IMG/VR virus record: IMGVR_UViG_3300022223_000005
Coordinates: 1 to 52,919 of that record
DNA: 52,919 bases
Direction: 5' to 3' (one strand)
Source of the DNA: a virus
Lineage: Duplodnaviria > Caudoviricetes
Shown here: one piece after another, positions 2,870-49,422 of the stretch
How positions within the stretch are numbered: the first letter of the stretch is position 1
Layout of the letters: every line of letters starts with the position of its first letter
Translations under genes and position numbers: made by a program
The notes under the pieces: model-generated
The model's database searches: none
What the model saw: the letters and a program-made list of their open reading frames with translations, nothing else
Told to the model about the DNA's origin: nothing

Positions 2870-3706
2870 TCATCTTGATCCAGTATAAGTTTTATGTACA
2901 TGATCATGTTTTTTATGATCATTTTTTTTATTTGGTGATTTGATCCAATTTGCGTTCAATCTTTCAAGTCTTGCAAACAAAATTTTTGTTTCAAATTTTA
3001 TTTCTTCAGTAATGCATATAGAATTGAAATTAATCTTGAAAACTTCAAAATTCTCAAAACTTGATTTATTTTTAATTTCAAAAGTTTCAATTCTAGATGG
3101 GCTTTCTTTTTTTAAAAAATCATAAGCCTCTAAATCTTCTTTTAAAAAAACATCTTTTTTACTTGTGTTTTTTTCTTTTGTTTCTTTTTTTAAAAGAATA
3201 TCACTATCACTATCACTAACACTATCACTAACACTATCACTAACACTTACACTTACGGTATGATTCGTATCAGTTCGTATACCATCGTATACGGTCGTAT
3301 CATTTTGCGTACCATCGTATACGGTCGTATCATTTTGCGTACCATCGTATACGGTCGTATCATTTTGCGTACCATCGTATACGGTCGTATCATCTTTTGT
3401 ACCATCGTATACGATTGTATCATCTTGTGTATTTTTTAGTTCGATAGAATTTTTCTTTTCCCATCGTTTTTTTATGTTTTTTCTGTTTTGCTCTTTTTTA
3501 GCCTCCCATTTTTTCAAATCCCTTTTTAATGTTTCCATTATTGAAGGGAATACAAATCTTATTACATCTTCATCGCTTTTAGGGTCAATGTCGTTTACAT
3601 ATTTCAATATGTGTTTTATTAATACACCTGCCTCTGAATCTGTTAAATTGTCAAATGTGCTCATCCAATCGCAATAAGCTGTAAATGATTTTTTTCCTTC
3701 TGCCAT
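2870..3706 (-). CDS. phage replication initiator (DUF6291-like N-terminus)
   Basis: MAEGKKSFTAYCDW..LTDSEAGVLIKHI N-terminus, internal tandem repeats, low-complexity VSDS linker. Confidence 0.7.
   Translation of the reverse strand: MAEGKKSFTAYCDWMSTFDNLTDSEAGVLIKHILKYVNDIDPKSDEDVIRFVFPSIMETLKRDLKKWEAKKEQNRKNIKKRWEKKNSIELKNTQDDTIVYDGTKDDTTVYDGTQNDTTVYDGTQNDTTVYDGTQNDTTVYDGIRTDTNHTVSVSVSDSVSDSVSDSDSDILLKKETKEKNTSKKDVFLKEDLEAYDFLKKESPSRIETFEIKNKSSFENFEVFKINFNSICITEEIKFETKILFARLERLNANWIKSPNKKNDHKKHDHVHKTYTGSR
3281..3430. repeat. five 30-bp tandem repeats, candidate origin iterons
   Basis: ACCATCGTATACGGTCGTATCATTTTGCGT-type units starting at 3281, 3311, 3341, 3371, 3401, each with a CGTATACG palindrome. 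Confidence 0.8.
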
Positions 3707-8047: not shown

Positions 8048-8080
8048 TGTGTTATTTTTAGTTTTTAAATTTCATTATTA

Positions 8081-8141
8081 TATTAGTATTTTTTATATAT
8101 TTGTAATCTCGAAAAGAGATAACCAATCTTTCGATTTTTTT
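8081..8141 (+). promoter_or_regulatory. promoter and 5' hairpin module of omegaRNA cassette 1
   Basis: TATATTTG (-7 element) at 8096-8103, then hairpin TCGAAAAGAGAT..ATCTTTCGA; 61 nt identical to 46672-46732. Confidence 0.7.
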
Positions 8142-8142
8142 A

Positions 8143-8259
8143 AACATTTTGGTTCGGGCAGAGCCAATGTTCGTTAACGTGGTGCATTAGCACGAGCGTT
8201 GAGCAAGAATCCCCTAGTCTTTAGATGTGGGAGTGTCAATTCTACAGGTATTGTAATCA
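8143..8259 (+). ncRNA. stand-alone TnpB omegaRNA/reRNA copy 1 (guide about TTCTACAGGTATTGTAATCA)
   Basis: 8143-8212 identical to 26327-26396 at the tnpB 3' end; right-end hairpin and GTGTCAA ending at 8239; no IS left end or tnpB nearby. Confidence 0.8.
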
Positions 8260-14743: not shown

Positions 14744-15730
14744 ATGAAAACATACACAGGAAATTTAGTCATAACAAAAGAAAATTATAATAATTTTAAA
14801 GAACTTGTAGAAGTTTCTGGTTCCATCGACGTTAGGGAGAACGCAACACTGACAGCGCCTAAGTTGGAGAAGTCTGGTTACATCTACGTTATGAAGAACG
14901 CAACACTGACAGCGCCTAAGTTGGAGAAGTCTGGTTCCATCGACGTTAGGGAGAACGCAACACTGACAGCGCCTAAGTTGGAGAAGTCTGGTTACATCGA
15001 CGTTAGGGAGAACGCAACACTGACAGCGCCTAAGTTGGAGAAGTCTGGTTACATCTACGTTAGGGAGAACGCAACACTGACAGCGCCTAAGTTGGAGAAG
15101 TCTGGTTACATCTACGTTATGAAGAACGCAACACTGACAGCGCCTAAGTTGGAGAAGTCTGGTTACATCGACGTTAGGGAGAACGCAACACTGACAGCGC
15201 CTAAGTTGGAGAAGTCTGGTTACATCTACGTTATGAAGAACGCAACACTGACAGCGCCTAATTTGGAAATTAAAAGTAACGTTGCCAAGATAAACGACAA
15301 GAAATACAGAGTAATACATAACGATGGAATTGCATTCTTTGTCGAAAGAAGCAGGACAACGAAAGGTATGAATATCCATTATGGTATAATGAGTATCAGT
15401 TGTTCCGAATTAGAAATAACAAGCAAAGAGGCTTTTGTAGTGGATAAGGACGGGTTCAGTGCGCACGCAGAAACCTTGAAGGAGGCCATTGTCGAATTGA
15501 ACTTCAAAATAGTTGCAGAGAAATTAAAGAACGACCCGATACACGAAAACACATTGATTACGGACAACTACTACAGATCTGTAACTGGAGCTTGCAAATT
15601 AGGAATAAAACAATGGAGGGAACAAAACAACATAACCTCTGAGGAAATAACAGCAAAGGAATTGCTTCCAATTCTTGAAAAAACAAAAGCGTACGGACTA
15701 AACAGATTCAAAAAGCTAATTGAATTTTAA
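14744..15730 (+). CDS. 20-aa repeat (beta-solenoid-like) protein
   Basis: About 7.5 copies of SG(S/Y)I(D/Y)V(RE/MK)NATLTAPKLEK; C-terminal YRSVTGACKLG domain. Confidence 0.75.
   Translation: MKTYTGNLVITKENYNNFKELVEVSGSIDVRENATLTAPKLEKSGYIYVMKNATLTAPKLEKSGSIDVRENATLTAPKLEKSGYIDVRENATLTAPKLEKSGYIYVRENATLTAPKLEKSGYIYVMKNATLTAPKLEKSGYIDVRENATLTAPKLEKSGYIYVMKNATLTAPNLEIKSNVAKINDKKYRVIHNDGIAFFVERSRTTKGMNIHYGIMSISCSELEITSKEAFVVDKDGFSAHAETLKEAIVELNFKIVAEKLKNDPIHENTLITDNYYRSVTGACKLGIKQWREQNNITSEEITAKELLPILEKTKAYGLNRFKKLIEF
14814..15266. repeat. 60-bp tandem repeat, about 7.5 units
   Basis: Near-identical units varying at three positions. Confidence 0.9.
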
Positions 15731-15761: not shown

Positions 15762-15798
15762 TTGACACTACCAAAATATTTAGGTGGGGGAGTGTCAA
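15762..15798. mobile_element. 37-bp palindromic IS-end minielement (degenerate RE/RE)
   Basis: TTGACACT-ACCAAAATATTTAGGTGGGGG-AGTGTCAA, right half identical to the IS right end. Confidence 0.75.
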
Positions 15799-15978
15799 GG
15801 CTTTTTTAATCTATTTTCATCAAACAAATCCAAAGTAAATTCATTTAGTGAGAACTCTAATATTGATTTTGATGTTTCTAATTTTTTAATAGACTTCTTT
15901 GATTGAATTATATTTGGCTCGCATTTCTCTAAACTAATTCCGTGTATTAATGTACTGCAGTCTGTTTTAACCATTATT

Positions 15979-22162: not shown

Positions 22163-24625
22163 TTAAAAAGTGTCATAGAATCTCCATGTCCCCCCGTCAT
22201 ATATAAATTGCATTTTTATAGATTGATTCAAAACCACTTCTGTGTCTGATACTTGTGTACCATCTTTTCTTTGAAAAACAAAAGAATTAGTAGTGTCTAT
22301 GAATGTCAATGTATTGGAACCTATTAGATTTAATTGATTTAAACCTACAATATCATTGTTTATAGCATCTTGTGGCATTAAAACCAACGCATCTGAACCG
22401 TTTAATGCTATACTTAAATTGGTGTTTACCTCTGCTTGGAATGTACCTTCTGAAGCCAATACCCCAATATCTCTTTGTATGTATGCTAATTCAGTCATAT
22501 GCCCTGTTTGCCCCGTTACAGATAAGTAAAATTCATTAGCAGGATTTGGAGAACCCATCATATTTATTTCATCACCAAGTATTTCAAGTGTAAAATCTTC
22601 ATCTCCAACAACCCTAACTTGAGAAGGTTTAAGGTCTATTTCCCAGTCCTGTACACCTCCTAAATTAGTATCGTATGTAAAATTTAATCCATCTATTTCA
22701 GTTTCCCATGATGCTTTTGTGGGTAAATACTTGTAAGTTACTGTAGATAAGATTTTTGTAAATCTCATCCTAATATTAGTCATATCTCCAAATACTCTTA
22801 ATTTAATTTTATTTACTTGTCCTGTAAATGGGGTATTTATAATTAAACTATTTTGTAATTGTGTTATTTGAGTAGATTCATTTGATTGTATTACAACCTC
22901 AGATTCCGATCCTTCTAATACTTCAAAGCTAGGTCTTTGACTCCCTGTAGTGCTGTTAAATTTTGAAGTAAGTATAGAGGATTGTTGCCCAGTGTCCATA
23001 TCTAATATAGATAATCCTCCTGATACTTCAGAAAGTTTTGCTATATCTCCAAAATTAATAGATGCAGATTCAACAGTGAACCCAGTAGGAGCTAATAAAG
23101 AACCATCTTGTAATTTTCTTATTCCTGAGTTTTCAAAAATTAAACCATTTGCAGATTTAATAGGTATTTGATTAGCTGATACAGAACTTAAATCTTCTTT
23201 ATTACTGTTATGCCAAAATGTTTTTGTTATAGTACCTGCTTGAGCTTGAGAGTCAACCAGTTCAACAGTAGATTCTATATACTCATACCTGAATTTTAAA
23301 GTTCCCCCTAATTGTAGTTTTGAACCTCCTGTAATTGTTCTTACATCTAAGTTTATACCTCCCATCAGAGTAGTTGTGTGAGTTGCATCTGCACTGCTCA
23401 CATCTAGAGGTGGGAACATTTCAACCCTTGAGGTATTTGGCCCCGAAAAAGTTATACTTGCATTTGCATTTAGACTTAGAAGATGGTTTTCATTACCAGT
23501 ATCAATGAATGTTGTTGTTCCGACGCAGTTTATAGTAACTGAATCCATTACAACAGTATTAGTAAGTATTGCAATTTTATTATCACCGCTATTTATATTA
23601 GCCTCTATCGCGTTCTTTACATCTGCTGCATTATCAATAAAAAATACATTATTTGGTATCGATGGAGACGTTGATGTATTATCCCAATACTCATTTATAA
23701 AATCCCCTGAATTAGAGGTAACAAAATTTACTGACTGAGATTTCTCATATCTCAACTCTACATTATTTAGATTTAATGTATTTATGAATTTGATATGCCG
23801 TGCATATATAATAGCGGCATTGTTTGAAACAAGGGTAAATGTGTCTGAACTATTATTGTTGTCACCTTCAAGGTTTGCATATATCTGAATAACATTACCA
23901 CCGTTTATAGTCCAAGATTCACCATCTGTTAAAAATAATTCCCCAAAATGACCACCTGCATCTCCCCAGCCAAGTATAGTTGCATCACCAACCATAGTTA
24001 TGGTATTTGTAGTCAATGCTATCCTATTCACCAAGACTATAATGCTTGGTGAATCTAGTGTTGATGATTCTAATGCTGATATTAATTGAGCTTCATTACT
24101 TGCATAGCGCCAGTTATCTGGGCTAGAATCACCTTTTTCGCCTTTTATTAAAGGGGTTGCATCTATCCATTTTGTAGCATCTACTGTAGTTGGATCACTT
24201 TCACCGGTCCATAGATACCAAATATTAGGAGTACCTGATACTTGTGCAACCGTAGTGTCTTTAACTAAATCGCCAAGGTTAGCTGCAGCCCATGTATTTC
24301 TAGCTGTATTATCTGTAAATGGGACAGTTGATGAATCTGGAATTAAAAACCCTGCACCGCTACCTCCCGATGCCGAATTAAAACCCGTGTTGTCATACAT
24401 CCAATCCTCAAACACTTGTGTACTTGAAAATGGTTGATCATTTTCATCCCTTAAATCTGAAAATTTAATTTTTAAAGGAGACTTAATTTGACTTCCAAAA
24501 AGTATAGAATAAACATTGTTATCTACTTTTTTTAACTTAGTTGCAATTAAAAATTCATTGTCTGTTTCTCCTTTATATTCAAGAAAAAAACTATTTCCAC
24601 GTATGTAAACCTTAACTATAGACAT
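22163..24625 (-). CDS. tail fibre/spike-like protein
   Basis: 820 aa beta-rich; short collagen-like KGEKGD; C-terminal YDGGTWRF. Confidence 0.6.
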   Translation of the reverse strand: MSIVKVYIRGNSFFLEYKGETDNEFLIATKLKKVDNNVYSILFGSQIKSPLKIKFSDLRDENDQPFSSTQVFEDWMYDNTGFNSASGGSGAGFLIPDSSTVPFTDNTARNTWAAANLGDLVKDTTVAQVSGTPNIWYLWTGESDPTTVDATKWIDATPLIKGEKGDSSPDNWRYASNEAQLISALESSTLDSPSIIVLVNRIALTTNTITMVGDATILGWGDAGGHFGELFLTDGESWTINGGNVIQIYANLEGDNNNSSDTFTLVSNNAAIIYARHIKFINTLNLNNVELRYEKSQSVNFVTSNSGDFINEYWDNTSTSPSIPNNVFFIDNAADVKNAIEANINSGDNKIAILTNTVVMDSVTINCVGTTTFIDTGNENHLLSLNANASITFSGPNTSRVEMFPPLDVSSADATHTTTLMGGINLDVRTITGGSKLQLGGTLKFRYEYIESTVELVDSQAQAGTITKTFWHNSNKEDLSSVSANQIPIKSANGLIFENSGIRKLQDGSLLAPTGFTVESASINFGDIAKLSEVSGGLSILDMDTGQQSSILTSKFNSTTGSQRPSFEVLEGSESEVVIQSNESTQITQLQNSLIINTPFTGQVNKIKLRVFGDMTNIRMRFTKILSTVTYKYLPTKASWETEIDGLNFTYDTNLGGVQDWEIDLKPSQVRVVGDEDFTLEILGDEINMMGSPNPANEFYLSVTGQTGHMTELAYIQRDIGVLASEGTFQAEVNTNLSIALNGSDALVLMPQDAINNDIVGLNQLNLIGSNTLTFIDTTNSFVFQRKDGTQVSDTEVVLNQSIKMQFIYDGGTWRFYDTF

Positions 24626-24691
24626 ATTATAATATTTTTTAAGTAAATACTATTTCTATGTTCAAATTATTGGTGGCTAATTTTATAAAAC

Positions 24692-24729
24692 TTCAGGCAT
24701 CTATGCTAATATACGATTAATTTTAATTT
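24692..24729. repeat. 38-bp direct repeat (copy 1), putative duplicated leftward promoter
   Basis: TTCAGGCATCTATGCTAATATACGATTAATTTTAATTT identical to 27245-27282. Confidence 0.85.
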
Positions 24730-24775
24730 TTGACACTCCCCCACCTAAAGACTTGGGGATAAAAGAATGACACGT

Positions 24776-25186
24776 CTACTTAGGTCTATTTTGTTGTTCA
24801 ATGTACTTTTTAACGACGTCAAGTGTAGCACCTCCAACGCTTCCAGCGAAGTAACTAGGAGACCACAGCGCGCCTTTGTAAAAACTACTTGAAAGACTTG
24901 GATAGTTTTGCTTTAAACGCCTAGAGGTAACACCCTTAATTGCATTTACTAGTTTTGAAACAGATACTTTTGGAGGATAGTCGATCAGTAGGTGTATGTG
25001 GTCACCCTCACCATTGAACTCTTTTAACACGCAATCTTTTTGCTCGCAAATAACTCGTGTTACATCTTCAATGTACTGTAAATGAATAGATTTAAGAACG
25101 TTGCTTCTATATTTTGTGACGAACACTAAGTGTACGTGCATTAAAAAAACGCAATTTCTTCCCTTTCTGATTTGTTTGTTTAACAT
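24776..25186 (-). CDS. tnpA: IS200/IS605 HUH Y1 transposase
   Basis: HLVFVTKYR, DHIHLL (HUH), KGVTSR, LWSPSYF, KYIEQQ catalytic Tyr. Confidence 0.97.
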   Translation of the reverse strand: MLNKQIRKGRNCVFLMHVHLVFVTKYRSNVLKSIHLQYIEDVTRVICEQKDCVLKEFNGEGDHIHLLIDYPPKVSVSKLVNAIKGVTSRRLKQNYPSLSSSFYKGALWSPSYFAGSVGGATLDVVKKYIEQQNRPK

Positions 25187-25189
25187 TAA

Positions 25190-26374
25190 TTGTATAATTT
25201 AGACCCATTAATTAAAAGCGTGAATTTAATAATAAAATCATATAAATACAAGTTAAAGACCAATAATACTCAGTATGAAATACTGAATAATTGGATCAAT
25301 ACTTGTCGTGCGGTGTACAATCTATCTTTGGAAACTAAGATAGAGGCGTACAAAACTAGGCAGGTATCTCTTAGTAAGTATGATTTAATGAAACAACTCC
25401 CTGAATTAAGGAATGAATTTGAATGGATCAAGGACGTTCCATCACAGTCTATGCAAAATGTAGTCGAACGCCTTGATGCTGCTTACAAGAAGTTTTTTAA
25501 AGGAGGCGGTTTTCCTAAATTCTCAAAGAAAGGAGCATACAAATCCATTCTGTTCAAACAAGGTGTAAAATACAGTAAAACACACGTAACATTTCCTAAG
25601 ATTGGCAAAATAAGATTCTTCAATTCTAAAAACATACCAAATGGATCAAAGATAAAAACAGCAATAGTAAGAAAAGAAGTAGATGGATTCTACATTAGTA
25701 TAGTAGTAGAGCAGATTACAGAAAAAAAACATTTCAATCCAAAAAGTGATAACCAAGCTGTAGGAATTGATATGGGTGTAAGTAAGTTCTATTCGCTTTC
25801 TACTGGAGATTCAAAAGAGAACCCAAGGGTATTGAAGTCATTTGAAAAAGAAATGAGAATTGCTCAAAGGTCACTTTCTAGGAAGGTGAAAAAATCAAAC
25901 AACTGGTACAAGCAACTTAAAAAAGTACAAAAGATTCATCTTAAAATAGGTCGTGTTAGAAAAGACTTTAGCCAAAAAGCAAGTACGGAACTAATAAGTA
26001 GTTTTAGCAAAATAGCCGTTGAAGATTTGAAGCTTAAGAATATGACAAAATCATCAAAGGGCGATTCAGAAAACCATGGTAAAATGGTCAAGCAAAAATC
26101 TGGGTTGAACCGTGTGATTTTAGATGTTGGTATAGGTGAGTTCTTTAGACAACTAGACTACAAGTCCAAATGGTACGGAAGGGAGTTTGTAAAGGTAGAC
26201 CCAAAATACACCTCTCAAACTTGCAGTGATTGCTCTCACAAGTCAAAACAAAACAGGAAAACACAATCAAAATTTGAGTGTGTAAACTGTGGTCACAAAG
26301 AAAATGCGGATATAAATGCCGCGAAAAACATTTTGGTTCGGGCAGAGCCAATGTTCGTTAACGTGGTGCATTAG
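25190..26374 (+). CDS. tnpB: RNA-guided endonuclease TnpB
   Basis: RuvC I GIDMG, RuvC II VEDL, zinc finger CSDC..CVNCG, RuvC III NADINAAKNI; all three acidic residues present; the true start may be GTG 25220. Confidence 0.97.
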   Translation: MYNLDPLIKSVNLIIKSYKYKLKTNNTQYEILNNWINTCRAVYNLSLETKIEAYKTRQVSLSKYDLMKQLPELRNEFEWIKDVPSQSMQNVVERLDAAYKKFFKGGGFPKFSKKGAYKSILFKQGVKYSKTHVTFPKIGKIRFFNSKNIPNGSKIKTAIVRKEVDGFYISIVVEQITEKKHFNPKSDNQAVGIDMGVSKFYSLSTGDSKENPRVLKSFEKEMRIAQRSLSRKVKKSNNWYKQLKKVQKIHLKIGRVRKDFSQKASTELISSFSKIAVEDLKLKNMTKSSKGDSENHGKMVKQKSGLNRVILDVGIGEFFRQLDYKSKWYGREFVKVDPKYTSQTCSDCSHKSKQNRKTQSKFECVNCGHKENADINAAKNILVRAEPMFVNVVH

Positions 26375-26443
26375 CACGAGCGTTGAGCAAGAATCCCCCA
26401 GTCTTTAGGTGGGGGAGTGTCAAAAAATTTCTTCAAATTCTAA
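26327..26443 (+). ncRNA. native omegaRNA/reRNA (guide about AAAATTTCTTCAAATTCTAA)
   Basis: Overlaps the tnpB 3' end and right end; stems TTGGTTC/GAGCCAA, TGC/GCA, CCCCC/GGGGG; 5' boundary inferred from the copies. Confidence 0.8.
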
Positions 26444-27208
26444 TACTAATGTAGCTGAAAATATAGAAGCAGCTACATTGTTATTATTAAATACGATTCT
26501 TAATTCGTTTGACTTATCAATTATTATATCTGAAAACAATTCATCATCTTCAAATTCACTTAAAGCACCGTTAACATTTGGTGTTTTTAATCCTATTGTT
26601 TTTCTAGCTATTATTTTTGGATTTAAAACAGTATTCCCAAATGGCGTTTTCCATTCAGATTTGAATACAACTAAATCTATTTCCGGTGAACCTGATGCGT
26701 TTGTCCACCCTCTAAATGTAGCACTTTTTATTTTACACTTAAAACTAACAACCTGTGTAATACCTTGAATAGTGTGATCTGAAAAATCATTGTCAGGTGT
26801 TAAATTCGCGTTATTTGGCGAGTAAGTATAATTATTTAAGTTGGCCGAAATACTAGATAATGATTGCCATATAGTTGATCCTGATGATCCTCCAGAAACT
26901 ACAAAAACAATTCTTTCAGTCCTTTTTGATGGTGAAACGTCAAAAAAAAACGGATAATTCAATTCTTTCAACCTGGTAACTAAATCCAAAGCAGTTGTAA
27001 ATGTTTCTTCTGCTGATGATCCTGTTTCATCAACTACTATAATGTTTGCAAGTGAATCACGTATATTGTCGCTTCCTGTTGGCTCGGTTAACTCAAAATC
27101 ATCCCCATCCATCCTGAAGTGGCCTTTAGACAATATTATGGTTTCACCTGAACTATTTATATGCGCCCAAATGTTAGATATGTTCTTTTTAATTATTTTT
27201 GTTGACAT
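26420..27208 (-). CDS. hypothetical virion-associated protein
   Basis: In the tail region; its TGA stop is supplied by the IS right end. Confidence 0.6.
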   Translation of the reverse strand: MSTKIIKKNISNIWAHINSSGETIILSKGHFRMDGDDFELTEPTGSDNIRDSLANIIVVDETGSSAEETFTTALDLVTRLKELNYPFFFDVSPSKRTERIVFVVSGGSSGSTIWQSLSSISANLNNYTYSPNNANLTPDNDFSDHTIQGITQVVSFKCKIKSATFRGWTNASGSPEIDLVVFKSEWKTPFGNTVLNPKIIARKTIGLKTPNVNGALSEFEDDELFSDIIIDKSNELRIVFNNNNVAASIFSATLVLEFEEIF

Positions 27209-27244
27209 GTTTATATGTGTTCAAATAAGCACAATGCGCAATAA

Positions 27245-27282
27245 TTCAGGCATCTATGCTAATATACGATTAATTTTAATTT
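27245..27282. repeat. 38-bp direct repeat (copy 2)
   Basis: Identical to 24692-24729. Confidence 0.85.
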
Positions 27283-40031: not shown

Positions 40032-40487
40032 CTATTTGTTATTTTTAGGTTTTGGGCCTCTTTTCTTAGGCTTAACATCTTCCACAACCTTTTTAGGTTT
40101 ATTTGGTTCAACTGGATCGATTGGATCGATTGGATCGATTGGATCGATTGGATCGATTGGATTAACTGGATCAACTGCATCGATTGTATTAATAGCTTCA
40201 ACCGGGTCTATTGGCTCAACTTCAACGTTAATTTCAGTTGATTTTTTCAACTCTTCCAATTCGCCTTTAACTTTTAACGGTTCTTCTTGTGATGTGTCCA
40301 ATTGCCCTTTTAAAACAGGGTAATCTTTTACGATTTCATTTATTTCTTGTGACAACTCAGATTCATCAACCTCAATGTCGCCTTTAATAAATGTGCATTT
40401 CAATCCATATCTGGAAATCATCAACCTCATACGAGTATTGATGATTTCCAGTTTATCTTCTCTACCTTCAAAAATTAACTTTCCCAT
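40032..40487 (-). CDS. hypothetical protein with DPI repeats
   Basis: 9-bp GGATCGATT tandem repeat at about 40114-40160; basic KKRGPKPK tail. Confidence 0.6.
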   Translation of the reverse strand: MGKLIFEGREDKLEIINTRMRLMISRYGLKCTFIKGDIEVDESELSQEINEIVKDYPVLKGQLDTSQEEPLKVKGELEELKKSTEINVEVEPIDPVEAINTIDAVDPVNPIDPIDPIDPIDPIDPVEPNKPKKVVEDVKPKKRGPKPKNNK

Positions 40488-45353: not shown

Positions 45354-45390
45354 TTGACACTCCCCCACCTAAAGACTGGGGGAGTGTCAA
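45354..45390. mobile_element. 37-bp palindromic IS-end minielement (RE/RE)
   Basis: TTGACACTCCCCCA-CCTAAAGAC-TGGGGGAGTGTCAA with 14-bp perfect arms. Confidence 0.85.
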
Positions 45391-45430
45391 AGATTTTACG
45401 CACTTGTATATATATTGGAGTTAGCTGCAA

Positions 45431-45799
45431 TTAATTTTTTACGATTTCGCATTCCATAAGTCCGTCATAATTTGCTAACCTTTCGCTTAAAAATCCCCCA
45501 ATACTTTCCCATACATCATCAGTCCATCCCTCTTTCAAAATGGTTCTAAATTCATAGAAAGTATCAAAGTCCGTGTCTTGTATAAAAAAGCATCCAGAAT
45601 TTAGTAATAGTTTGCCTTTTCCGTTTACTTCTAAATCAAAGTACTTGTCTTTAAAGTAAGAGTCACCAAAGTAGGCTACAAAAAAACCATTTTGAACCCT
45701 TGCTATCTTCCAATCAAAGTCATTTTCATCTTGGTACGTATGGCATTCTTGGTATTGTTCCGTATTGGGAAATTTTTCGATGGGCATTGAGTATATCAT
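45431..45799 (-). CDS. hypothetical protein (cassette-like)
   Basis: 122 aa; bounded by GTTAGCTG/CAGCTAAC. Confidence 0.6.
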   Translation of the reverse strand: MIYSMPIEKFPNTEQYQECHTYQDENDFDWKIARVQNGFFVAYFGDSYFKDKYFDLEVNGKGKLLLNSGCFFIQDTDFDTFYEFRTILKEGWTDDVWESIGGFLSERLANYDGLMECEIVKN

Positions 45800-45921
45800 A
45801 ATAAAAAAATTAACAGTTCGCTTCGACAGCTAACAATGTGTATAAAAAATATCCTAATTAAGTTTTGTAATAAAAGGCTCGTTACTTAACCGAAGAAAAA
45901 CAAAAAGCCTTCAACACGTGC

Positions 45922-46173
45922 TTACTCTTGCTTAATAAAAACCGTTTTAGTCATATCTAACCAGACTGGTGGTTGTGTATTTCCAGAGTTTATACCTAGC
46001 CATAATTTTCCGTGAAACAAGAATTTAAGTCTTTTCCAAAATGGAACAGTCCATAAAGAAATGCATTCGCCATTTTCAGACCTATACACCCATAAACTTC
46101 CACATTCTTCATCTGACATAGATGCAGGTTTTTTTAATTCAATGTGGGCTTCTTCAAAATGTAATGGTTTCAT
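45922..46173 (-). CDS. hypothetical phage protein
   Basis: ECGSLWV..CISLW..RLKFLFHGKLWL..QPPV. Confidence 0.65.
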   Translation of the reverse strand: MKPLHFEEAHIELKKPASMSDEECGSLWVYRSENGECISLWTVPFWKRLKFLFHGKLWLGINSGNTQPPVWLDMTKTVFIKQE

Positions 46174-46175
46174 AA

Positions 46176-46424
46176 TTAGTTTTGTTTGTGAGTTTCGTTC
46201 ATAAAAAATTGTCCTACTTGAGTAATCATATTATCAAGAGTTTTAAATGCTTCATCGTCAGATAATGCAGAAATGTCATTTTGTAAAAGCATTAATAATT
46301 GTCCAAAAGCACCGTAAAAAACTCTTTTAGTTTCAACTCTTTGTACTGTTGGCATTTTGCTTTCATCTAACTTCATTCTTTGTAAATAAAGTTTGTACTG
46401 GTTTTCAATGTTAAATTTGCTCAT
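46176..46424 (-). CDS. hypothetical protein
   Basis: MSKFNIENQY start. Confidence 0.55.
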   Translation of the reverse strand: MSKFNIENQYKLYLQRMKLDESKMPTVQRVETKRVFYGAFGQLLMLLQNDISALSDDEAFKTLDNMITQVGQFFMNETHKQN

Positions 46425-46484
46425 AATTGTAAATATTTGGCGAAGCCATTTGCCCACGCTCTTTTTTGTTTTTAGTTGTATTTA

Positions 46485-46529
46485 TTGACACTCCCCCACC
46501 TAAAGTGAGGGGGTTTTTCGAAGACGGTG
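46485..46529 (-). mobile_element. 45-bp single-hairpin LE/RE hybrid minielement (PATE-like)
   Basis: Minus strand TTAT|CACCGTCTTCGAAAAA-CCCCCTCACTTTAGGTGGGGG-AGTGTCAA. Confidence 0.85.
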
Positions 46530-46671
46530 ATAAGTTCGTTCTGTCTTGTTTTAATTTTTCAATCTTATGTTTTAATTCCATAGTTTTTGCATATTTAAAA
46601 CACAAATCTACAAATTTAAATTTGATTTTTTATTAATTTATAATAATTAAAGTCAAATGCAATCATAATTG

Positions 46672-46732
46672 TATTAGTATTTTTTATATATTTGTAATCT
46701 CGAAAAGAGATAACCAATCTTTCGATTTTTTT
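46672..46732 (+). promoter_or_regulatory. promoter and 5' hairpin module of omegaRNA cassette 2
   Basis: Identical to 8081-8141; TATATTTG at 46687-46694. Confidence 0.7.
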
Positions 46733-46733
46733 T

Positions 46734-46850
46734 AACATTTTGGTTCGGGCAGAGCCAATGTTCGTTAACGTGGTGCATTAGCACGAGCGTTGAGCAAGAA
46801 TCCACTAGTATTTAGATTGTGGAGTGTCAAATATTTGTACAATGATTGAT
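46734..46850 (+). ncRNA. stand-alone TnpB omegaRNA copy 2 (guide about ATATTTGTACAATGATTGAT)
   Basis: 46734-46803 identical to 26327-26396; variant hairpin and GTGTCAA ending at 46830. Confidence 0.8.
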
Positions 46851-47120
46851 AAAAACACACCATTATTAAGACTAAAAAAAATACTAAAAGAAAAAGGTAT
46901 TAAATCAGTGGACTTTGCTAAACAAATCGGAGTCACGGAAAACACTGTATCAAATATCAATAATGGGAAAACGTTGCCGAAAATTCAACTACTTGTCAAA
47001 ATTGCAAATGTGTTAAACGTTGATATTAGGGATTTGTTTAATCCTACAAAGAATGTAACGACTAAGGATTTAATTAATAAAGGTAAAAATATATTTAATC
47101 AACTGGAACAGAAAATATAA
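46842..47120 (+). CDS. XRE-family HTH regulator
   Basis: LRLKKILKEKGIKSVDFAKQIGVT..LVKIANVLNVDIRDLF; ATG at 46842. Confidence 0.85.
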   Translation: MIDKNTPLLRLKKILKEKGIKSVDFAKQIGVTENTVSNINNGKTLPKIQLLVKIANVLNVDIRDLFNPTKNVTTKDLINKGKNIFNQLEQKI

Positions 47121-47257
47121 TCCAAATAAGCGCAAAATATATTAATTTCTTCGTTTTTTGAAGTGGAATTGTTTGGGATGTTTGTTCTACTTTTTTTTCG
47201 ACTTTAGATTTAGAGTGTATTGTTGAAAATAATTAATATAGCTTATTTGGGTTCTTA

Positions 47258-47302
47258 AAAAAGCCGCTTGACATTTTAAAAATGTTTTAAGCGGCTTTTT
47301 TC
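47258..47302. terminator. bidirectional terminator
   Basis: AAAAAGCCGCTT..AAGCGGCTTTTTT between convergent genes. Confidence 0.75.
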
Positions 47303-47320
47303 ATCAACATAGGTATGTTT

Positions 47321-47860
47321 TTAGTTTTCAATTCCGTTAAATAGAAAGAAAAGTTTCATAGTTGCTTCAGTATCTCCCATCGCTCTATGCGGATTATTAT
47401 TTACTATTCCAAAATGATTAAGCAATACCGGTAATGAATTGCTAGATGTACCAATATCCATTTTCCTTGCAGATTCTAAAGTGCAATAGTATTGCTGAAA
47501 CACAAAAGGATAATCAAATGATCTTAGAAAATATTCAGTCCATTTTTTATCCATATTCAATACATTGTGACCAATTATACATCGTACATTATTGTCTAAA
47601 AGAATCTTTTGTATATCTCTTGCGGCCATATCTGCTTGTATGCCATTTTTTAATTGACTCATAGATATACCATTTACATTCATAGCTTTAACATTATACA
47701 CGACTGGTTTTCCATTAAAACGCGATATGTACGGCTTTATAAGAGCTTCATATCGTGTAACCTCTTTAAATTCACTATCCAATACTATAACTGCTATTTC
47801 ACACAATGCGTTTGTTTTAACATTAAACCCTCCAGTTTCGACATCTATTACTGCATACAT
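47321..47860 (-). CDS. DEDDh 3'-5' exonuclease (DnaQ-like)
   Basis: VIDVETGG, GHNV..D, HRAMGD; start MYAVID at 47860 (the ORF-track extension runs through the MITE). Confidence 0.9.
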   Translation of the reverse strand: MYAVIDVETGGFNVKTNALCEIAVIVLDSEFKEVTRYEALIKPYISRFNGKPVVYNVKAMNVNGISMSQLKNGIQADMAARDIQKILLDNNVRCIIGHNVLNMDKKWTEYFLRSFDYPFVFQQYYCTLESARKMDIGTSSNSLPVLLNHFGIVNNNPHRAMGDTEATMKLFFLFNGIEN

Positions 47861-47880
47861 ATTTTTTTGTTTTAGTTTAT

Positions 47881-48031
47881 CACCGTCTTCGAAAAACCCC
47901 CTCACTTCAGGAGGGGGATAAAAGAATGACATATTTAGTTTTGGTTCGGGCAGAACCAATGTTCGTTAACGTGGTGCATTAGCACGAGCGTTGGGCAAGA
48001 ATCCCCCAGTCTTTAGGTGGGGGAGTGTCAA
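47881..48031 (+). mobile_element. 151-bp non-autonomous IS200/IS605 derivative (left end plus omegaRNA/right end)
   Basis: TTAT|CACCGTCTTCGAAAAA-CCCCCTCACTTCAGGAGGGGG-ATAAAAGAATGACA joined to the scaffold and right end; ATAAAAGAATGACA is shared with 24759-24772. Confidence 0.88.
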
Positions 48032-49232: not shown

Positions 49233-49422
49233 AATGTTTGTGTGTATGTGTGTGTGCCTACTCTAGTTCATCTTTTCGGCTTTCGATGTTTGATTTATAT
49301 TTTATAGTACGTTATGTCTATGATTTTTGTTTGTTGCTTTCATTGGTGTATTGTTTATTAGTTGTGTGCAATATACAAATTAATAACACATAATCTACTA
49401 TAAATACAAGTTTAATTTGTAT

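Follow-up and report, generated by a model that had tools for sequence, protein, structure and literature searches.

IS608 of Helicobacter pylori is a described element against which the ends of a TnpA-dependent insertion sequence can be read. According to the account in PMC3201880, its TnpA cleaves on the top strand only and finds its sites via 4-nt guides located 5' of each hairpin. The left site, TTAC, lies 19 nt 5' of the hairpin, with an AAAG guide at the hairpin foot, and the right site is TCAA; mutation of the left guide abolishes the synaptic complex (PMC3201880). For the Geobacillus elements described in PMC10055086, excision requires both the cognate TAM and guide pairing. The same source gives the mobilization of gene-less elements in trans as the accepted view, and it describes PATEs as non-autonomous IS200/IS605 derivatives that are said to need TnpA and TnpB in trans. 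REPtrons, as portrayed in PMC3333891, consist of a Y1 transposase gene among REP/BIME hairpins and do not move as a unit, while the REPs themselves are thought to be mobilized in trans.

The window, that is, the whole stretch of DNA analysed here, is a linear IMG/VR record of 52,919 bases with 32.6% G+C, estimated by CheckV to be ~49% complete. PHROG matches identify a tailed phage, with a terminase, portal, major head protein, tape measure, tail proteins, repressor-like regulators and a DNA methyltransferase. The insertion sequence is located within a minus-strand run of tail-region genes. We found no relatives of the flanking 820-aa gene and two distant relatives only (~30% identity) of the flanking 262-aa gene; no related phage with an empty site was found by way of these genes. 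The locus comprises the following features:

22163-24625: left neighbour ORF of 820 aa, no family match
24687-24729, plus strand: phage intergenic segment adjoining LE', with a second copy at 27240-27282 (95% identity)
24730-24760, minus strand: inverted right-end copy (LE'), 30 of 31 bases being the reverse complement of the right end (RE) at 26393-26423
24755-24772, plus strand: retained inner part of the genuine left end (LE), GGGGATAAAAGAATGACA, identical to 47914-47931 of the mini element
24776-25186, minus strand: tnpA, Y1 (HUH) transposase of 136 aa (Pfam Y1_Tnp, E 4.6e-42)
25190-26374, plus strand: tnpB, RNA-guided nuclease (Pfam OrfB_IS605, Cas12f1-like_TNB and HTH_OrfB_IS605; NCBIfam guided_TnpB, 314 bits)
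26326-26423, plus strand: tnpB 3' end with the right end (presumed omega-RNA region), RE proper at 26393-26423
26420-27208, minus strand: right neighbour ORF of 262 aa, no family match

The phage segment next to LE' is one of the two copies of a 43-nt repeat, of which 33 nt are exact (24697-24729 = 27250-27282). The repeat stands upstream of two adjacent, unrelated tail-region genes and is probably a shared regulatory element. In the alignment, homology between the two copies stops exactly at the boundary of the IS element. At the other side of the element, the TGA stop of the minus-strand ORF 26420-27208 comes from the TCA of the terminal GTGTCAA of the RE (26420-26422), and the same holds for the minus-strand ORF 15795-15974 and a further RE unit (15795-15797). 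Further features elsewhere in the window (14759-15381, 3235-3461, 40094-40228 and 49255-49289) comprise tandem repeats with repeat units of 57, 30 and 9 nt, of which at least the first is within an ORF, and an Rfam DUF805b RNA motif on the minus strand (38.6 bits, gathering score 35.6).

The full-length element has the order LE, leftward tnpA, rightward tnpB and RE, the two genes being divergent and almost abutting. We take this order to be that of IS605. TnpA scores 143 bits with the NCBIfam transpos_IS200 profile (cutoff 55) and 25.4 bits with REP_Tyr_transpos (cutoff 80). Its alignment with solved Y1 transposases covers the whole protein, with the motifs DHIHL and SYF conserved; these correspond to the HUH and tyrosine motifs of the family as given in PMC3597680. 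Residues 16-382 of TnpB align to residues 5-369 of the solved TnpB (8bf8/8exa), and its GIDMG, AVEDLK and ADINAAKN are opposite GVDVG, GTEHLK and RDENAALN of that protein. These three motifs presumably carry the D, E and D of the RuvC domain. The tnpB ORF opens at a TTG (25190), and the alignment to the solved TnpB makes the GTG at 25220 the likely translation start. Both genes are apparently intact, as judged from their sequences. The tnpB stop codon (26372-26374) stands 49 nt before the RE terminus, and no Rfam family matched the presumed omega-RNA region. In a search of ~15 billion proteins, neither TnpA nor TnpB had a relative at 90% identity or above outside this phage.

The RE consists of GAAT, a hairpin with the arms TCCCCCA/TGGGGGA and a terminal GTGTCAA (hairpin -7.5 kcal/mol, z -2.5). 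In the full copy it reads ...GAATCCCCCAGTCTTTAGGTGGGGGAGTGTCAA, with its terminus at 26423. This boundary is firm, as all four aligned window copies of the tnpB 3' end with RE diverge right after GTGTCAA. A 24-mer of the RE, with up to three mismatches, has seven matches in the window and an expectation of 0.00 in 100 shuffles, which excludes chance. The genuine LE is laid out as TTAT, then 16 nt ending in AAAA, then a hairpin with the arms CCCCCTC/GAGGGGG, then ATAAAAGAATGACA. It occurs (TTAT followed by CACCGTC...hairpin) in two window copies, the mini and the micro element, each preceded by TTAT, a tetranucleotide found at 1.0% of positions per strand in the window. The units concerned are:

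47877-48031, plus strand: TTAT (47877-47880) and a 151-nt gene-less mini element (47881-48031) with genuine LE and RE
46485-46529, minus strand: 45-nt micro element, preceded on the minus strand by TTAT at 46530-46533
45354-45390, no strand: 37-nt perfect palindrome, in which the RE hairpin is bordered by GTGTCAA and, opposite, by its mirrored form TTGACAC
15762-15798, no strand: degenerate copy of the 37-nt palindrome

The mini element differs from the full copy at two positions in the 93 nt of the RE side and at none in the 18 nt of the inner LE, which makes it a recent derivative. The micro element has a single chimeric hairpin, formed in direct orientation by the left arm of the LE and the right arm of the RE (repeat pair of 42 nt, 95%). 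The palindrome at 45354-45390 folds at -16.8 kcal/mol (z -6.2), and its symmetry ends at the RE terminus. Both 37-nt palindromes have the same first 30 bases as LE'.

Altogether there are eight RE-derived units in 53 kb, including the single-hairpin units of 45 and 37 nt. Half of the eight, namely a palindrome, the micro and mini elements and a solo omega-RNA copy, lie within 2.7 kb (45354-48031), which suggests that units hop over short distances or that this region is permissive. Two copies of the tnpB 3' end with RE stand alone, devoid of a left end, at 8142-8239 and at 46734-46830 (plus strand). Upstream of both there are ~70 nt of shared non-IS sequence (8072-8141 = 46663-46733), which contain a TAnnTTTG-like motif as well as a hairpin with a T-run behind it. 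The terminal hairpin is degenerate in each of the two copies, which might represent guide RNAs that are expressed separately and have their own guides. The first 55 nt of a 5028-nt Logan contig match the RE (three differences), and the contig then runs into sequence outside the window, which indicates at least one further RE copy in the sample, perhaps located in the missing half of the phage.

The left boundary of the full-length copy departs from this layout. On the plus strand, 24730-24760 reads TTGACACTCCCCCACCTAAAGACTTGGGGAT, and its minus-strand reading is ATCCCCAAGTCTTTAGGTGGGGGAGTGTCAA. The initial annotation had described the outer left end as an inverted RE with one mismatch, and the base-by-base comparison bears this out: the sole mismatch is at 24754. 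Counting three matching flank bases (TTT/AAA), LE' and RE form a repeat pair of 34 nt (97%). Read on the minus strand, LE' ends at the RE cleavage site, adjoining phage DNA at 24729. It had further been stated that only the inner part of the genuine LE is kept at 24730-24772; this part is indeed identical to the mini element, over 18 bases instead of 14, the four extra identical bases being due to the GGGG(G)AT common to both parental hairpins. The genuine left end that the annotation had placed at 47877-47931 is also found there, with TTAT at 47877-47880 and the element start at 47881. In the window, GGGGATAAAAGAATGACA matches 24755-24772 and 47914-47931 only. Its first six bases at 24755-24772 overlap LE' and constitute a junction microhomology. 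The junction lies within GGGG(G)AT, which is present on the plus strand both in the inverted RE (...GACTGGGGGAT) and in the LE (...GGAGGGGGAT). The sequence GGGGGAT itself occurs on the plus strand in the mini LE only, while ATCCCCC is found at five window sites, including both intact REs.

The left end of the full copy thus lacks TTAT (target and cleavage site), the 16-nt spacer, which contains the AAAA guide, and most of the LE hairpin. Folded as ssDNA, the LE' hairpin reaches -3.5 kcal/mol (z -0.18), compared with -7.5 for the genuine LE and for the RE; the mismatch at 24754 accounts for the weakening. The 4 nt located 5' of the LE' hairpin are ACAC or CACT, not AAAA, and TTAT is absent at the right distance. 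On the minus strand LE' resembles an RE, but the four bases immediately 5' of its hairpin differ from GAAT, and no LE is nearby on that strand. The full copy is flanked by AATTT on the left and AAAAT on the right and is bounded by a 31-nt inverted repeat, and TTAT is absent at both flanks of 24730-26423 on either strand. A promoter scan retrieved a site (GTGTCA, 17 nt, TATATT) across the junction of LE' and phage on the minus strand; such promoter-like sites were no commoner in the window than in shuffles (6 found, mean 7.1).

Several features of this lineage match IS608: a Y1 HUH TnpA together with TnpB, subterminal hairpins, an RE ending in TCAA and insertion 3' of a tetranucleotide, TTAT in the phage lineage versus TTAC in IS608. 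The guide and site are AAAA and TTAT in the phage versus AAAG and TTAC in IS608, so that the fourth position co-varies, and we infer by analogy that the IS608 guide/site pairing rule would apply to the phage element. The spacing is different, with 16 nt between the cut and the LE hairpin in the phage versus 19 in IS608, and the TCAA is separated from the RE hairpin by less than the 10 nt seen in IS608. The main difference lies in the full copy, which has a 31-nt inverted RE in place of its outer LE and, as a result, terminal inverted repeats that are absent from the family. The full copy has the Y1 TnpA and the accessory tnpB with a 3' end overlapping the right end that characterize IS200/IS605 elements. 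It lacks subterminal hairpins on the same strand with a left site 5' of the LE hairpin, which are present in the mini and micro elements and in the relatives, and it does not show insertion 3' of a tetranucleotide without target duplication or terminal inverted repeats. The lineage is a member of IS200/IS605 with IS608-like ends, and the full copy is a defective member. No paper combining an 'inverted right end' with IS605 and TnpA was found in the openly searchable literature.

The closest full relatives that we detected, three copies in a Francisella MAG, have a TnpB that is 48% identical over the best matching segment, and their length and divergent gene order are the same as those of the phage element. 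Two of them are 99.9% identical over 1685 nt, and the third has an intact tnpA. All three start with TTAT followed by CA..., in a layout alignable to the genuine LE of the phage (CA..CCGT..AAAA-hairpin-GATA.AAG..ACA in both). The single Francisella copy with a complete right side ends in GAAT-hairpin-AAGAATGTCAA, and two copies in Rickettsiaceae MAGs end alike. In metagenome contigs, we detected two single-hairpin elements of ~48 nt after TTAT (L023:462-540 and L028:1960-2020), whose last 20 bases are those of the phage RE and which stand in unrelated sequence contexts, suggesting that one-hairpin micro elements of the phage RE type are mobile. A Bacteroidota genome (G307) contains two non-autonomous elements of ~450-490 nt after TTAC (L067:1025-1518 and L069:1069-1518) that end in GAAT-hairpin-AGTGTCAA, i.e. 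the phage RE type in a G+C-rich host.

Nine left boundaries could be defined (those of the window's mini and micro elements, the three Francisella copies, L023, L028 and the two G307 elements). TTAT or TTAC precedes every one of them, and an inverted RE was seen at none, which indicates, for a sample that is small and largely distant, that an inverted end is not the norm of the family. Comparison with homologous IS copies had been proposed in the initial annotation as a check on its reading, and these relatives indeed do not have the inverted-end structure. The Francisella MAG also carries a 40-nt solo palindrome (L044:1501-1540), in which the RE hairpin of that genome has a mirror copy of its 3' tail at the 5' side; the pattern is present in one of 48 Francisellaceae genomes, namely the IS-bearing one. 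Wider searches retrieved little else. An RE 18-mer, a 26-mer of the omega-RNA region and an LE 21-mer had no matches in viral contigs, and blastn of the element against a phage collection gave two weak partial matches only (67-78% identity over 5-19% of the query). An RE 20-mer retrieved six short metagenome contigs that share the terminal hairpin only, with other tnpB genes and no inverted pair. A host search with the RE 18-mer (up to two mismatches) yielded 21 matches in 19 of 401 sampled Bacteroidota genomes, versus ~27 for the reversed control, and among nine of these match loci inspected, real REs were found in G307 only.

A mis-join during assembly, at the repeated RE sequence, was considered as a rival explanation. 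The RE is present 7-8 times in the window, and the 33-nt exact repeat adjoins the junction and breaks Logan contigs, which are built with k=31. However, a 1656-nt Logan contig spans 24700-26355 without any difference, crossing LE' at a depth of 10.4, similar to that of the flanks (9.7). The Logan contigs come from one public run, probably that of the source sample, so they are not independent data, but the assembler is independent. The junction repeats, of 23 and 18 nt, fall below the k commonly used in assembly, and the same TnpB is encoded on a record from a contig of nearly equal length (52811 nt) in another assembly. Among the loose ends of the contigs of the run, none joins a genuine LE to tnpA. 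Taken with its points in favour, this leaves an assembly artefact as a highly improbable explanation.

We favour, with moderate confidence, the reading that the full copy is a defective one, in which the remnant of an oppositely oriented RE was fused to the LE by a short-repeat deletion, leaving no usable left cleavage site and a possible supplier of TnpA and TnpB. A second element, whether full, mini or micro, would have inserted head-to-head on the minus strand. A deletion between two 7-nt direct repeats would then have removed everything in between, joining LE' to the inner LE. By a like deletion between the direct TGGGGGA repeats of an LE'...RE structure, the 37-nt palindrome would arise, and a loop-to-loop join would give the micro element. 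The retention of ATAAAAGAATGACA in both the mini element and the full copy implies an ancestor with a genuine LE beside the inverted tnpA. An arm that ends exactly at the RE cleavage site against phage DNA is what a real minus-strand insertion is expected to leave, and in all four cases (LE'/RE, the two window palindromes and the Francisella palindrome) the symmetry of the inverted arm ends 0-3 bases from the RE terminus. In the paralogue (27240-27282), TTAC immediately precedes the shared segment on the minus strand, which hints weakly at a former minus-strand target at the insertion site. The trace of the proposed second element amounts to 31 nt alone, and the mismatch at 24754, at the junction, is not explained by a clean repeat deletion.

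Three other routes were considered and set aside. A clean one-step insertion of 24730-26423 is unlikely, given that no TTAT is present at either flank on either strand. Fold-back synthesis starting at a TnpA nick in the RE would yield arms that mirror the inner rather than the outer sequence. Had an inverted element inserted into the minus-strand TTAT inside the LE, an inverted LE instead of an inverted RE would stand beside ATAAAAG.

It is rather unlikely that the arm arose without a second full insertion, either copied from the element's own RE by a replication strand switch or acquired when the IS interior recombined into a pre-existing 37-nt RE palindrome. The palindromes at 45354 and, in degenerate form, at 15762 share their first 30 bases with LE', a 40-nt analogue exists in the Francisella MAG, and LE' equals the element's own RE at 30 of 31 bases, with the flanking TTT/AAA matching as well. 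Yet a strand switch has no reason to halt exactly at the RE terminus, and three matching flank bases are meaningless in DNA of 67% A+T, while the palindromes are equally explicable as deletion products of LE'...RE through the direct TGGGGGA repeats. We regard as very unlikely a third reading, in which the inverted ends are functional, either as a REPtron-like anchored transposase locus that mobilizes hairpin-only units or as an element using an RE on each strand. An intact tnpA does stand between inverted hairpins, with eight RE-derived units in 53 kb, as REPtrons in PMC3333891 are Y1 transposase genes with bordering REP/BIME hairpins that are immobile as a unit; moreover, excision by TnpA means permanent loss unless countered, in the account of PMC10055086, so that an excision-proof master copy could be favoured. 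Against this, TnpA scores as IS200/IS605 and not as REP-associated, the inverted-end form is known from a single full-length copy and its arrangement from no relative, and the LE' hairpin carries a destabilizing mismatch and, on the minus strand, is not preceded by GAAT. A point against the favoured reading is that inverted RE arms are recurrent, being found in two window palindromes and one Francisella palindrome, and may reflect a specific recurring process rather than a one-off accident. That these arms are both recurrent and linked to TnpA, the phage representing an early step from an IS605-type element to a REPtron-like system, seems quite unlikely. The most economical view is that the inverted left end is a decay product of short-repeat deletion between hairpins.

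REPtrons are the known architecture nearest to the phage locus. As in REPtrons, the phage tnpA is bordered by hairpins, and a seemingly immobile unit is accompanied by small scattered hairpin units that are presumably mobilized in trans. In contrast to REPtrons, the locus has a TnpA of the IS200/IS605 clade, a tnpB and only a single hairpin at either side, and its host is a phage. As for REP/BIME-type flanking, one inverted hairpin stands on each side of the gene pair, and the density of RE units (eight in 53 kb) refers to a genome that is about half complete. As TnpA falls outside the REP-associated clade, with its score well below the REP_Tyr_transpos cutoff, the phage locus is not a REPtron and analogy alone stands. 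The mini (151 nt) and micro (45 nt) elements resemble PATEs in being gene-less with both cleavage sites, while the full copy is the opposite case, in which the genes are kept and an end is lost.

The initial annotation had reasoned that Y1 transposition needs left and right cleavage sites on the same strand, that this copy cannot excise normally, and that it is fixed and acts as a source of TnpA and TnpB in trans. The premise agrees with the top-strand specificity of IS608 TnpA as given in PMC3201880. Because the full copy has no TTAT, no AAAA guide and a weaker hairpin, and TnpA acts on one strand, its canonical top-strand excision appears unlikely by analogy with IS608, and the copy is classed as defective and probably immobile. 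Elements of the family excise as single-stranded circles and leave a scarless donor joint; the contigs of the run contain no joint across the element and no empty site, although rare events are beyond the reach of contigs. Since the stem is preserved in the reverse-complemented hairpin, LE' might still be bound by TnpA. The missing half of the phage could contain a copy with a proper LE. Since both ORFs are intact and end-competent mini and micro elements are present in the same genome, a role of the full copy as a source of TnpA and TnpB in trans for these elements is plausible from sequence.

Should the REPtron-like reading be true, the tnpA/tnpB locus of the phage, flanked by inverted hairpins, would be anchored and protected from excision, and it would serve mobile units of a single hairpin as well as stand-alone guide-RNA copies. 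The locus does not reveal a new kind of system; it is most simply an ordinary decay product of unusual shape. If the favoured reading, deletion between hairpins, is true, the full copy would be a natural autonomous IS200/IS605 copy made excision-proof by one lost end, beside end-competent gene-less derivatives in a phage. This would bear on a point of the TnpB literature, according to which elements tend to be lost through excision by TnpA and autonomous copies are described as unstable. The LE, LE', RE, chimeric hairpin and perfect palindromes together would also provide a simple substrate set for the left-end requirements of this class of TnpA.
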